Of a DNA stretch of 64,000 nt, positions 58,285 to 63,315 are shown piece by piece. The first letter of the stretch is position 1, and each line of letters starts with the position of its first letter. Both the position numbers and the translations under genes were made by a program. Location of the stretch: the NCBI GenBank assembly GCA_026394965.1, contig JAPLZQ010000103.1:13028-77027 (forward strand), given 5' to 3'. Below the pieces are notes generated by a model. The model was not told where the DNA came from. It worked only from the letters and a program-made list of their open reading frames with translations, and searched no databases. This DNA comes from Candidatus Woesearchaeota archaeon (GTDB taxonomy: Archaea > Nanobdellota > Nanobdellia > Woesearchaeales > 0-14-0-80-44-23).

Positions 58285-58875
58285 ATGAAGCCGGAATCAA
58301 GGATTCTTGGGGTTGATGACAGCCCTTTTGACAAGTTCGGGAAAAAAAGAAATGTCCTCATAGTTGGAACCCTCTACCGCGGAGGGAATTTCCTGGACGG
58401 AGTTGTCTCAACTCAGGCAGAGATAGACGGAGCAGATGGAACTAAAAAAATAGGGAATATGATTACGGGGACAAAATTCTTCCCTCAGATAAGAGCGGTA
58501 TTCCTGAAAGGGATTGCAGTTGCTGGATTCAATGTGATTGACATAAATGAGCTCTCCAAAAAAACAGGAATTCCAGTGATTGTTGTGATGAGAAAATACC
58601 CTGACATTCCAGGAATAAAAAAGGCGCTTTCCAATCTTAAAGACAGAGGGAAAAGATTTGCGCTCATAAGAAAAGCAGGGAAGATAAGCAGGGCAAAGGT
58701 TTTTTACAGAGGAAAGGAAAACACCTTGTTCCTGCAAATCGCAGGGACAACCTTGAAAGATGCGCAATCCTTCCTGAAAATCAGCTGCACCCACTCAATA
58801 ATTCCCGAGCCATTAAGGACTGCGCACATAATCGCGTCTGGAATTGTGCTTGGGGAAAGCAGGGGAAGGGCGTAA
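58285..58875 (+). CDS. UPF0215/DUF99-family protein
   Basis: [18 protein letters not shown] matches the conserved N-terminus of the archaeal UPF0215 family. 196 aa. C-terminal tail [23 protein letters not shown]. Confidence 0.45.
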   Translation: [196 protein letters not shown]

Positions 58876-58922
58876 ATTCCAAACAAGAAAAAATATTTAC
58901 AATTTAAATTAGAAAAATAAAA

Positions 58923-60842
58923 TTATACAATATCCACGTCTTTTATGCAGTTCTGGATTATGTTCTGGCAGTCATCCATCACAGTAATGAGATTCCTGTC
59001 ATTTGCCGCATTCCTTATCTGCCCAATCCTGTCTAAAATCTGCCTGAAAAACCTCATGACATCCCCTTCGAGCATTGTCGTGTTCTTTATCACTTCAAAA
59101 ATTGATTCCCCTTTGTATGCCGGATAAATCAGGGAAGTCATCTCGTTGAAATAATTAAAGCGCCTGTCCTTTTTCATGAATCCCTTATCAATAAGTATTC
59201 TTCTCAGTGCAGCCACATCCTTTGACTTAACCTCGTTTTCAAACTCTGTCTTTTCAGATGCCTCATTGCATATGCATGCAAGCACAATCAGGATTTGGTA
59301 TTCATTAAGGGACTTGTAAAAGTCAGTTGCGAAAATCTCCCCGAAAAGAATCTCGTCAGCGTAAATCCTTGATGAAAACTCGCCCTTCTCAGTTAATTCA
59401 TTTCCGTCTATGTAGCCGAGGCGCTCAAGCTTGCTTTTTATGTTTTCAAACGCCCTATGACTTCTCTTGTTCTTTATCTCAGCATAATCCATCCCGTATT
59501 TCTGGAATGAGTTGAAGCTCTTGCAGAGGATTTCCTGAATCTCATCAGGGGGATGGTTCTTTATGAGATTAAGAACTGTATTCACTGAAAGCCTGAACTG
59601 CGAGACAATAGGCTCCTTGTCCTCATCTGTGATTTGTCTTAATTTCCCATAGTCAAAATCGCGCCTGTCAATCATTGCAAATGCAAATCCTTCCTTATCA
59701 ATGCCTCTCCTTCCGGCTCTTCCTGAAATCTGGAAGTATTCCTTTGAATAGAGAAACCGAAAATTTATCCCGTCAAATTTTCTCATGGAGTCAAAGCAAA
59801 CTGACTTTGCAGGCATGTTGATTCCAACTGCAAAGGTTTCAGTCACATAGAGAACTTTTATCATTCCCTTTCCGAAAAGTTCCTCAATCATCTCCTTAAT
59901 CACGGGAAGTTCTCCTGCGTGGTGAAACCCAATTCCATATGGAAGGGTTTCTCTGAGAATCTTAGTTGACTCAAGCTGGCTTATCTCAGGAGGGGCTGAT
60001 GCTAATTTCTGCCTTATTATTGAAGTAATCTCAGCATTTGGAGGAAAAAGATGCTCTTTTGAAAGGGCAAGTGCGTTCTGCTGGCAGAGGTTTCTTGAGA
60101 ATGTGAAAAACAGGCAGGGAAGCTTGTCCTTGATTTCCCTGATTAATGCGATGTGATTCGGCTTTTTTACCTTTTCCCTTTGCCCTTTGTGGCGCATTGC
60201 ATGATGATATTCAGGAATGTCTGCTATGTCATTTATCTCATCAAGAGAGCATATTCCCAGTTGGGCATCGTAAAAATAGCGCTTAAGGGGAACTGGTCTT
60301 ACTGTGTGCTTTATCACAACAACCTTATGGTTGCTTATTGCCTGAATCCATGCTGCGAACTCCTCTGCATTTGGGATTGTTGCAGAAAGGCATAGGAATC
60401 TAACGTGAGATGCAGAGAAGATTATTGACTCCTCCCACACATAGCCGCGCTCAACATCATTTATGTAGTGAATCTCATCAAAAATCACATAGGAAACATC
60501 CTTTATCAAATCATCTCCTGAAAGCACCATGTTCCTGTAAATCTCAGTAGTCATTATCAGAATCTGCCCTTTTGGATTGATTACAATGTCCCCTGTCAAA
60601 AGCCCGACAGCATCTTCCCCGTAATCTGCTGAGAATTCGCGGTATTTCTGGTTGGAAAGCGCTTTTATCGGCGCTGTATAAATGACTTTTATTCCCTTTT
60701 TTATGTCCCTGTTGATTATGTAGTCAGCAATCAGGGTCTTTCCTGAGCCAGTTGGCGCAGAAACAACAACAGAATTATTGCTCTCAATTGCCTCAATTGC
60801 ATCTTCCTGGAATTTGTCTAAAGTGAGCCCCTTATACTGCAT
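58923..60842 (-). CDS. Ski2-like DExH-box ATP-dependent helicase
   Basis: Motif I APTGSGKT, motif II DEIHY, motif III SAT, motif VI QISGRAGRRG. A C-terminal helical/winged-helix region follows. 639 aa. Confidence 0.75.
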   Translation of the reverse strand: MQYKGLTLDKFQEDAIEAIESNNSVVVSAPTGSGKTLIADYIINRDIKKGIKVIYTAPIKALSNQKYREFSADYGEDAVGLLTGDIVINPKGQILIMTTEIYRNMVLSGDDLIKDVSYVIFDEIHYINDVERGYVWEESIIFSASHVRFLCLSATIPNAEEFAAWIQAISNHKVVVIKHTVRPVPLKRYFYDAQLGICSLDEINDIADIPEYHHAMRHKGQREKVKKPNHIALIREIKDKLPCLFFTFSRNLCQQNALALSKEHLFPPNAEITSIIRQKLASAPPEISQLESTKILRETLPYGIGFHHAGELPVIKEMIEELFGKGMIKVLYVTETFAVGINMPAKSVCFDSMRKFDGINFRFLYSKEYFQISGRAGRRGIDKEGFAFAMIDRRDFDYGKLRQITDEDKEPIVSQFRLSVNTVLNLIKNHPPDEIQEILCKSFNSFQKYGMDYAEIKNKRSHRAFENIKSKLERLGYIDGNELTEKGEFSSRIYADEILFGEIFATDFYKSLNEYQILIVLACICNEASEKTEFENEVKSKDVAALRRILIDKGFMKKDRRFNYFNEMTSLIYPAYKGESIFEVIKNTTMLEGDVMRFFRQILDRIGQIRNAANDRNLITVMDDCQNIIQNCIKDVDIV

Positions 60843-61686: not shown

Positions 61687-61689
61687 GGA

Positions 61690-63315
61690 TTATGCTTTTC
61701 TCCTGCTTTCCCCTTTAATGAGCCCTGATGCGAGTATGTGCGCTGCCTGAAGCGGCTCTGATATTGCAGGATGCGCGCATTCTTTTTCTCCCATCTTCTC
61801 GTTTGCAGAATAAAGCAAATCCTCTGCGTCTCTTTGTATCAGGATTGGAAGGTTCTTTGTGTCAAGCCCTGCGATAACCGCATCTTTGGTTTTTAGCTCA
61901 GATATACCTCTGTTTGCGAGCTGCGTAGGGTCCAGGAAATAAATGTCCGTGCTCAAATCCATGTTTATGTGCACTGCCTGAATGTAGGAATGTCTATAGT
62001 CGCTTATGTTGTCTTCTTCAACCCCGAATTTCCAGTTTGCGAATTTCTCCGGCTGCATAGGAATTAAGTATTCCCTAAGATAATGCAGTGCAAGAGCAGT
62101 GTAGTCAGTGCATTTTCCAGTCACTTCTTCGCTTTTTTTCCCAGAGAATATGTCTTTGATTGTATCCTCTAATTTTTTGTATTTTGTTATGACATTTCTT
62201 GCAAAATATGCTGAAAGCACCAGCGCCTCTCCGACAGAGTATTCTGAAAGCGGCTTGTTTATTCCTGAGGTGAGCCCTTTTTTCTCTTCGTCGCTCGCAA
62301 GTATCTTTGCAGTTATCTCTGATGCGAGCCGCACAAATCTTTCCCTTGATTTTATCGGAAGAAGCCTATCAACATCATCATATGTTGTCCCCTTAATCTC
62401 TGAAAGCAATGACATTTTTATTTTTCTTTTCAGGCTCTCGTTTGGATTAAGAGTTTCTATTTCGCCTGTTGCCTCATTCGGCTTTTCATTTCCAGTGTAG
62501 TCAAGAAGGGTTGAAAGGTCTTTTATCCTGGCTTTTCCAACGGTTTCAAGAGCAGTCAAGTATGAGAATCTTACAAACTCAAGCCCACTTATTGCTTTCT
62601 TCTTCCCATCTTCGCTTATTTCAGGAAGCTCGGATATAAATCTCACAATTTCATTGTAATTTGAGAGAAAGTCAAGCGGTTCAAAGCTTATACCAGTATA
62701 AGTATACCAAGTCTTATTTATATGCGTAAGGGTGGTTGCCTCAACCATTATTTTATGAGCTTCAATCATTTTCTTATGTGCCTCAACATCTTTTTCTTTT
62801 GGGTCAAGAAGGTTATTCAGGTGAAAATTGAAAGCGCCGTTCTGTTGGTTTATCCAAGAATTGCCAACTGCATCGTTTAATACTTTATTGATGCCTGAAA
62901 AGTTAAGCCCCAGCGGGAAATTCAGAAATCCTTTGTCCAGCTTGTGCATGTATTCTGCAGGATGCGCCTGAAGCTCAGCCATTGTGATTATTGGAGAATC
63001 ATACCCTCTTTCAAGCGAGGGAGAAAATCTCTTAAAGTCATATCTCTCAACTACATCAGCTGCCTTTAGCGCAGATAATGCTGCCTCTTTTGAGTTTTCA
63101 GTAATCGTTATATTCATACTTGCAAGAAAATCATTTGCTTCAGAGCCCAATTCTGCCTGGGCAACACTTCTTTCAACAACGCTTTTTACTAGCGCCTTTT
63201 TGCTTTCAGCGTCTATAACTTTTGCTTCAAGATCTGCCTTTCCGCTTATCATGATAGACACTTTGTTTTCGAGTTCGTCTATTCCGAGCATTTTTTTTAT
63301 CCATTTTCCTATCAT
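61690..63315 (-). CDS. hypothetical 541 aa protein whose C-terminal 23 aa match the DUF99 protein tail
   Basis: No recognisable catalytic motif. The C-terminal tail is SEPLQAAHILASGLIKGESRRKA. Confidence 0.4.
   Translation of the reverse strand: MIGKWIKKMLGIDELENKVSIMISGKADLEAKVIDAESKKALVKSVVERSVAQAELGSEANDFLASMNITITENSKEAALSALKAADVVERYDFKRFSPSLERGYDSPIITMAELQAHPAEYMHKLDKGFLNFPLGLNFSGINKVLNDAVGNSWINQQNGAFNFHLNNLLDPKEKDVEAHKKMIEAHKIMVEATTLTHINKTWYTYTGISFEPLDFLSNYNEIVRFISELPEISEDGKKKAISGLEFVRFSYLTALETVGKARIKDLSTLLDYTGNEKPNEATGEIETLNPNESLKRKIKMSLLSEIKGTTYDDVDRLLPIKSRERFVRLASEITAKILASDEEKKGLTSGINKPLSEYSVGEALVLSAYFARNVITKYKKLEDTIKDIFSGKKSEEVTGKCTDYTALALHYLREYLIPMQPEKFANWKFGVEEDNISDYRHSYIQAVHINMDLSTDIYFLDPTQLANRGISELKTKDAVIAGLDTKNLPILIQRDAEDLLYSANEKMGEKECAHPAISEPLQAAHILASGLIKGESRRKA

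Follow-up and report, generated by a model that had tools for sequence, protein, structure and literature searches.

The question raised by this locus is why two otherwise unrelated proteins end with closely similar peptides. It lies in a stretch of 64,000 nucleotides (nt) of contig JAPLZQ010000103.1 (hereafter the window), from a Candidatus Woesearchaeota metagenome-assembled genome (MAG), and the proteins in question are a 196-amino-acid (aa) Endo_dU (DUF99) protein, hereafter the resident Endo_dU, and a 541-aa protein from an uncharacterised family. A first-pass annotation of this DNA had proposed that the common ending is a shared interaction, targeting or degron tag, or else a module exchanged by recombination. 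We found that the peptide is motif VII, the closing beta-strand-to-helix segment of Endo_dU, an RNase H-like nuclease related to EndoV, and we consider it likely that its second copy is a decaying 29-codon 3' relic of an Endo_dU gene that was joined in frame to an unrelated gene by a rearrangement. Both open reading frames (ORFs) lie exactly where the first pass had placed them, and the features on which the comparison rests are the following.

58285..58875, + strand: intact resident Endo_dU (DUF99) gene, 196 aa
58786..58875, + strand: last 29 codons and stop of the resident Endo_dU gene, encoding motif VII, the final helix (from an alignment of 120 homologues)
61690..63315, - strand: gene of the 541-aa protein (ORF confirmed)
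61780..63315, - strand: residues 1-512 of the 541-aa protein, its body; an uncharacterised Woesearchaeota family with an N-terminal coiled coil and a probable transglutaminase-like domain at the C-terminal end
61690..61779, - strand: probable Endo_dU gene relic, last 29 codons and stop, now the tail C513-A541 of the 541-aa protein (from the NCBIfam DUF99 profile and DNA colinearity)

The shared peptide as motif VII of Endo_dU

Comparison of the two proteins by BLASTP returned a gapless C-terminal match of 30 residues, 17 of them identical and 22 positive (E = 1e-9), and aligned nothing outside these last 30 residues, in line with the earlier statement that the remainder of the two proteins shows no similarity. 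The aligned tail of the 541-aa protein reads ECAHPAISEPLQAAHILASGLIKGESRRKA, and its C-terminal extension includes ...EKECAHPAISEPLQ... The shared ending reported in the first pass is real, but the number of identities given there, 15 of 23, needs correction: there are 14 among the last 23 residues, 15 among the 25 that had been quoted and 17 among the 30 that reach out to the cysteine. The similarity of the two C-termini is far beyond chance. The underlying DNA is identical at 58 of 90 nt, and differing codons are used at eight of the 18 positions that agree in product, the stop common to both included; since many of the kept residues are thus encoded differently, the shared stretch is not a recent DNA repeat and has been conserved at the protein level.

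The 196-aa protein matched Pfam PF01949 over residues 4-187 (E 1.5e-55, 187.9 bits, cutoff 32.7) and the NCBIfam model NF001977 with 220.8 bits (E 9.6e-66), a score under that model's curated cutoff of 235 bits, and the structure PDB 2QH9 (AF_1433) aligned with it through the last residue (E 1e-34). Its C-terminal motif is intact and its tail residues are those of the family consensus, and from these matches it can be classified as a standard member of Endo_dU/DUF99. The first-pass suggestion to look for the tail in DUF99 alignments proved fruitful, as the tail is part of the family domain: the pattern EPxRxAHxIAxGxxxGESRGRA-COOH ends all 120 aligned Endo_dU homologues in the same 22-residue register, and P-23, E-22, P-21, R-19, H-16, G-7, S-5 and G-3 are invariant in 120/120. 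Endo_dU/DUF99 proteins nick DNA 3' of deoxyuridine, and motif VII is the last helix of their fold and part of the putative uracil pocket (PMC11585767). The motif VII histidine corresponds to H166 of AfuEndo_dU, whose replacement together with D10A greatly lowers activity (PMC11585767). Motif VII being the last helix of Endo_dU and carrying a functional histidine, the presumed tag is therefore integral to the RNase H-like fold.

The tail of the 541-aa protein and its likely origin

Aligned homologues of the 541-aa protein (27 sequences, all from Woesearchaeota, 36-59% identical) span its residues 1 to ~508. All 27 stop at ...RDAEDLLYxAxExMxx (~...NEKMxx) and none carries the tail, which makes the extension peculiar to this genome. 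Pfam detected no family in the 541-aa protein at E <= 1, and the NCBIfam DUF99 profile matched only residues 512-541, which correspond to profile positions 166-195 of 195 (18.9 bits versus the cutoff of 235). The full RNase H-like domain with motifs I-VII (~180 residues) is thus not present. The first-pass annotation had itself named an outcome that would undo the tag, namely that the tail is simply the conserved DUF99 C-terminus and the 541-aa protein a DUF99 fusion along its full length; the former is what we found, whereas a cryptic full-length fusion was rejected, with Pfam, NCBIfam and BLASTP showing the last 30 residues at most. When the protein was modelled with AlphaFold2 on the basis of its family alignment (mean predicted local distance difference test score, pLDDT, of 83), confidence was good to about residue 510, and the tail came out as a lone, undocked helix, predicted at residues 521-540, with a pLDDT of 37-56. 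A Foldseek search of the PDB with this model, together with a profile search of PDB sequences, gave coiled-coil noise only. A putative transglutaminase-like Cys-His-Asp core, for which the body of the protein was compared with papain-fold enzymes of that kind, offers a first hint about this uncharacterised Woesearchaeota family. Searching 1.84 billion representatives with the 31-aa tail gave a single match, a spurious one to a eukaryotic tandem-repeat protein, the query being too short even for recovering a true Endo_dU.

The origin of the tail was indicated by the genes around it, which were compared with Endo_dU loci of related Woesearchaeota (designated L019, L021, L023 and L025 to L027). 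Three neighbours are needed for this comparison, one of them a metallo-beta-lactamase (MBL)-fold gene.

60946..61686, + strand: MBL-fold hydrolase gene, convergent with the relic across a 3-bp spacer (Pfam Lactamase_B, Lactamase_B_2)
58923..60842, - strand: Ski2-like DEAD/DSHCT helicase gene, between the intact Endo_dU gene and the relic (Pfam DEAD, DSHCT)
56374..58134, - strand: GlmS gene, the conserved divergent 5' neighbour of Endo_dU (Pfam SIS, GATase)

Helicase(+) MBL(+) Endo_dU(-) GlmS(+) is the gene order of L025, L026 and L027, where the MBL gene and a full Endo_dU gene converge across a 13-bp spacer; the MBL protein of the window is 65% identical to the homologue in these loci. DNA alignment showed that positions 61597-61779 of the window are colinear with the MBL-to-Endo_dU junction of L025 and L027, from the 3' end of MBL across the spacer and through the final 29 codons of Endo_dU, and that colinearity breaks sharply after 61779, the Cys codon, beyond which the sequences are unrelated. 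On the other side of the breakpoint, the native end of the 541 family carries on through ...ATG GGA GAA AAA GAA, matching the P0003 gene. As the similarity to Endo_dU ends at the Cys codon and the 541-family part reaches GAA AAA GAA, the junction is therefore placed at E512|C513. The 541-family gene no longer has its native stop codon, and its translation terminates at the former stop of Endo_dU. A sharp breakpoint with the ancestral neighbour of the parent gene kept beside it is what distinguishes a rearrangement relic or chimeric ORF, and both were found here: the relic has retained the ancestral 3' neighbour MBL, and the intact gene the ancestral 5' neighbour GlmS, divergent as in L019 and L025.

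These observations suggest the following course of events. A second or former Endo_dU gene would have stood tail-to-tail with the MBL-fold gene, as in the related Woesearchaeota, and a rearrangement breakpoint would have fallen inside that copy, 29 codons before its end. The 3' end of a 541-family gene would thereby have been joined in frame to the Endo_dU remnant, losing its own stop, with translation since running on across the relic as far as the former stop of Endo_dU. The first-pass idea of a module exchanged by recombination survives in that a fragment was apparently joined on by a rearrangement; what was joined looks like a relic and not an exchanged functional module. In all likelihood the tail is a passenger, because it is unable to form the Endo_dU fold, has lost three family-invariant residues and is predicted to be a loose helix. 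We read the feature as a scar left in the genome, ordinary in kind, and not as a new protein tag. It documents a rearrangement in a small Woesearchaeota genome and calls for caution in annotation and motif hunting: listing the peptide among targeting or degron signals would be a mistake.

The state of the relic was assessed against its closest relative, the Endo_dU gene of the L019/L025 clade, with which it shares 23 of 29 residues and 72-74 of 90 nt. At all six replaced residues the resident, L021 and L023 copies side with the L019/L025 clade, so the changes fell on the tail's own branch. Three of the six (P-23 to S, R-19 to Q and G-3 to R) hit sites that are invariant in 120/120 family members; among the motif VII invariants the tail has kept E, P, H, G and S. 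Replacements at such sites have the look of relaxed constraint. Synonymous divergence of the relic from the L019/L025 clade (pS 0.44-0.48, pN 0.10; NG86) is below the background between the window and that clade (pS 0.72-0.74), at a level reached by just 2-5% of 29-codon windows across orthologous genes, and between the relic and the resident copy pS is saturated at 0.72, with no shared derived residues. With 22 synonymous sites behind them, these comparisons are no more than suggestive; they speak against recent copying of the resident gene and would be compatible with an old duplication or with a resident copy that replaced the broken original.

Several observations weigh against a relic left by rearrangement. 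The fusion is known from one genome and one contig only, and a scan of Joint Genome Institute (JGI) metagenomes with a degenerate pattern specific for the tail gave no matches and no second contig. The relic is closer to the L019/L025 gene than to the resident one, which sits uneasily with a simple duplication of the resident gene's end in the recent past, and relative to L025 at least three new junctions are needed (Endo_dU to helicase 3' end, helicase 5' end to MBL 5' end, and relic to the 541 gene). The tail is moreover still an open frame that has kept most residues of the closest Endo_dU, with an NG86 omega of ~0.15 against that gene. Some constraint on the tail is therefore conceivable, though most of the path over which omega was measured predates the fusion.

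Alternative explanations for the shared ending

Among the alternatives to a passenger relic, co-option fared best, although we regard it as unlikely. Here the relic would be an amphipathic helix that is now selected in the 541-aa protein, e.g. for oligomerisation or for regulating the transglutaminase-like domain. The 90 nt have indeed remained without a stop or frameshift despite 16-18 substitutions relative to the nearest Endo_dU gene, omega on the combined path is low, and AlphaFold2 predicts a helix. However, with so few substitutions an open frame is expected by chance (~0.4 by our estimate), the prior for joining in frame is one in three, all six replacements lie on the branch of the tail, the helix is modelled with low pLDDT and the tail is known from a single genome. 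Slightly less probable still is that the orphan motif VII helix has become a working C-terminal module of the transglutaminase-like protein, for instance one that mimics the Endo_dU helix toward a common partner or DNA, or one that regulates the enzyme; if true, a co-opted motif VII helix would represent the birth of a new protein segment from a gene fragment, caught in the act in a DPANN archaeon.

It is also improbable that the fusion gene is an assembly chimera that does not occur in the organism. The source is a MAG represented by a single contig, and no independent copy was found, both of which would fit a chimera. Against this, the divergence of both flanks of the 90-nt piece from their relatives is at the level seen elsewhere in the contig (pS 0.72-0.74), a chimera would have to contain two false joins within 100 bp, and replacements at three sites invariant in 120 real Endo_dU genes are not expected if the piece had come from the intact gene of a co-occurring strain.

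Very improbable in the light of the family alignment is the tag itself, that is, a selected C-terminal peptide serving interaction, targeting or degradation in both proteins. Its extreme C-terminal place in both, its intact frame and the 17 of 30 residues kept despite the saturated synonymous divergence of the two copies would fit such a function, but this conservation is accounted for by an Endo_dU origin of both copies. A portable tag should recur on several unrelated proteins of the proteome, be conserved on their orthologues and lie outside folded domains. The check for other proteins with the same ending, which the first-pass annotation had recommended, yielded two sites only in the 64 kb (six-frame motif scan), tblastn with four Endo_dU proteins recovered no further fragment there, and the peptide is absent from all homologues of the 541-aa protein. 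In Endo_dU it falls inside the Pfam domain as the last helix and belongs to the fold both structurally and catalytically instead of being appended to it, and in the 541-aa protein it has lost family-invariant residues and is modelled as an undocked, low-confidence helix. The notion of a shared tag was consequently abandoned.

Hardly credible, finally, is a recent copy of the resident Endo_dU 3' end made by local inverted duplication or gene conversion, for although the copies lie 2.8 kb apart, inverted around the helicase and MBL genes, and a duplicative inversion of the block from the Endo_dU 3' end through MBL to the helicase formally yields the present order, they are identical at only 58 of 90 nt with saturated pS and no shared derived residues, their longest identical run is ~12 nt (by eye in the aligned sequences), and the tail is nearer the L019/L025 gene. 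An ancient duplication of the resident gene's 3' end is still compatible with the 90 nt.

Other routes to the present arrangement were considered and rejected. A simple deletion between a 541-family gene and a conserved downstream Endo_dU neighbour was dismissed, as 18 loci with 541-family homologues (flanks up to 10 kb) contained neither Endo_dU nor the tail, and the closest of them has an HD gene downstream. A recent lateral transfer of an MBL-plus-relic block from the L019/L025 clade was not supported, the divergence of the MBL gene being ordinary (65% aa, pS 0.74) and the low pS of the relic (0.44-0.48) no more extreme than the bottom 2-5% of 29-codon windows. No single inversion was found that turns the L025 order into that of the window, and a duplicative inversion needs MBL and helicase genes that were already divergent and conflicts with the divergence of the two copies.

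Gene neighbourhood and comparison with known systems

The surroundings of Endo_dU vary among the related loci. The order GlmS(-)/Endo_dU(+)/helicase(-) is common to the window and L019, and the GlmS protein of the window is 71% identical to that of L019, in the same arrangement; the helicase is 70% identical to the one beside Endo_dU in L019/L025. L021 has a HAD gene in place of GlmS and a phosphodiesterase gene between Endo_dU and helicase, and in L023 Endo_dU is co-directional with GlmS. The neighbourhood formed by Endo_dU, GlmS, helicase and MBL differs in every lineage examined, which marks the region as clearly prone to rearrangement. Between Endo_dU and helicase, the MBL gene is present in L025 (4058-7345) and cleanly absent in L019 (8001-10537; 14-bp gap), loci whose Endo_dU proteins are identical at 192 of 196 aa; its presence or absence is a recent polymorphism at the site that is rearranged in the window.

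The resident Endo_dU is 59% identical in aa sequence to that of the L019/L025 clade, with a third-position identity of 0.39, versus 71-72% and 0.45-0.47 for its neighbours GlmS and helicase. It may be evolving fast or have replaced an earlier copy; identities computed in sliding windows over GlmS, helicase and Endo_dU revealed no clear mosaic boundary.

Further observations concern the wider region. The GlmS gene belongs to a cluster at 53147-58134 (- strand) that also encodes NTP_transferase/hexapeptide, phosphoglucosamine-mutase-like PGM and HAD proteins, keeps its synteny with Endo_dU in every relative examined and likely represents the uridine diphosphate N-acetylglucosamine (UDP-GlcNAc) pathway. 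In the closest relative, the loci L001 and L019 lie on one 278-kb contig, and the variable region between the helicase and the 541 homologue is densely filled with toxin-antitoxin-type pairs (NTP_transf_2/HEPN, PIN/RHH, ParE) and also has a PDDEXK_19-HTH gene, as would suit a flexible genomic island adjoining the rearranged site. Upstream of the 541-aa gene, a gene at 63567-64000 (- strand) runs off the end of the window with its frame open to the edge, the listed 95-aa ORF being its C-terminal part only; it is 49% identical over 140 aa to a 578-aa NTP_transf_2/Polbeta/Wzt_C protein that is encoded two genes upstream of Endo_dU in L023. The tRNA genes tRNA-Arg(TCT) (49281-49356) and tRNA-Cys(GCA) (50071-50143), both on the + strand, have no evident link to the rearrangement.

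Three known systems were compared with the shared ending and its setting. Integration sites of mobile elements, with their attL/attR duplicates of a gene's 3' end, resemble it in having two copies of one 3' end, one intact and one orphaned. Here, however, the copies are inverted and not direct, the intervening helicase and MBL genes are conserved chromosomal neighbours, no gene annotated as an integrase was found among the neighbouring genes run against Pfam, and the tRNA genes are >8 kb away. With Endo_dU/DUF99 itself (PF01949; AfuEndo_dU, 2QH9) the tail shares the alignment to the last 29-30 profile positions and the EP..AH..A.G...GES core with its histidine, whereas the 541-aa protein has neither motifs I-VI nor any other part of the RNase H-like fold, and three invariant residues are replaced. 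From rearrangement-breakpoint remnants the locus differs in having an intact second copy of the broken gene 2.8 kb away, strongly diverged from the relic; it agrees with these remnants and with chimeric ORFs in its sharp breakpoint, with an ancestral neighbour on one side and an unrelated gene on the other, and in a relic that is still read in the original frame up to the original stop and bears signs of relaxed constraint.

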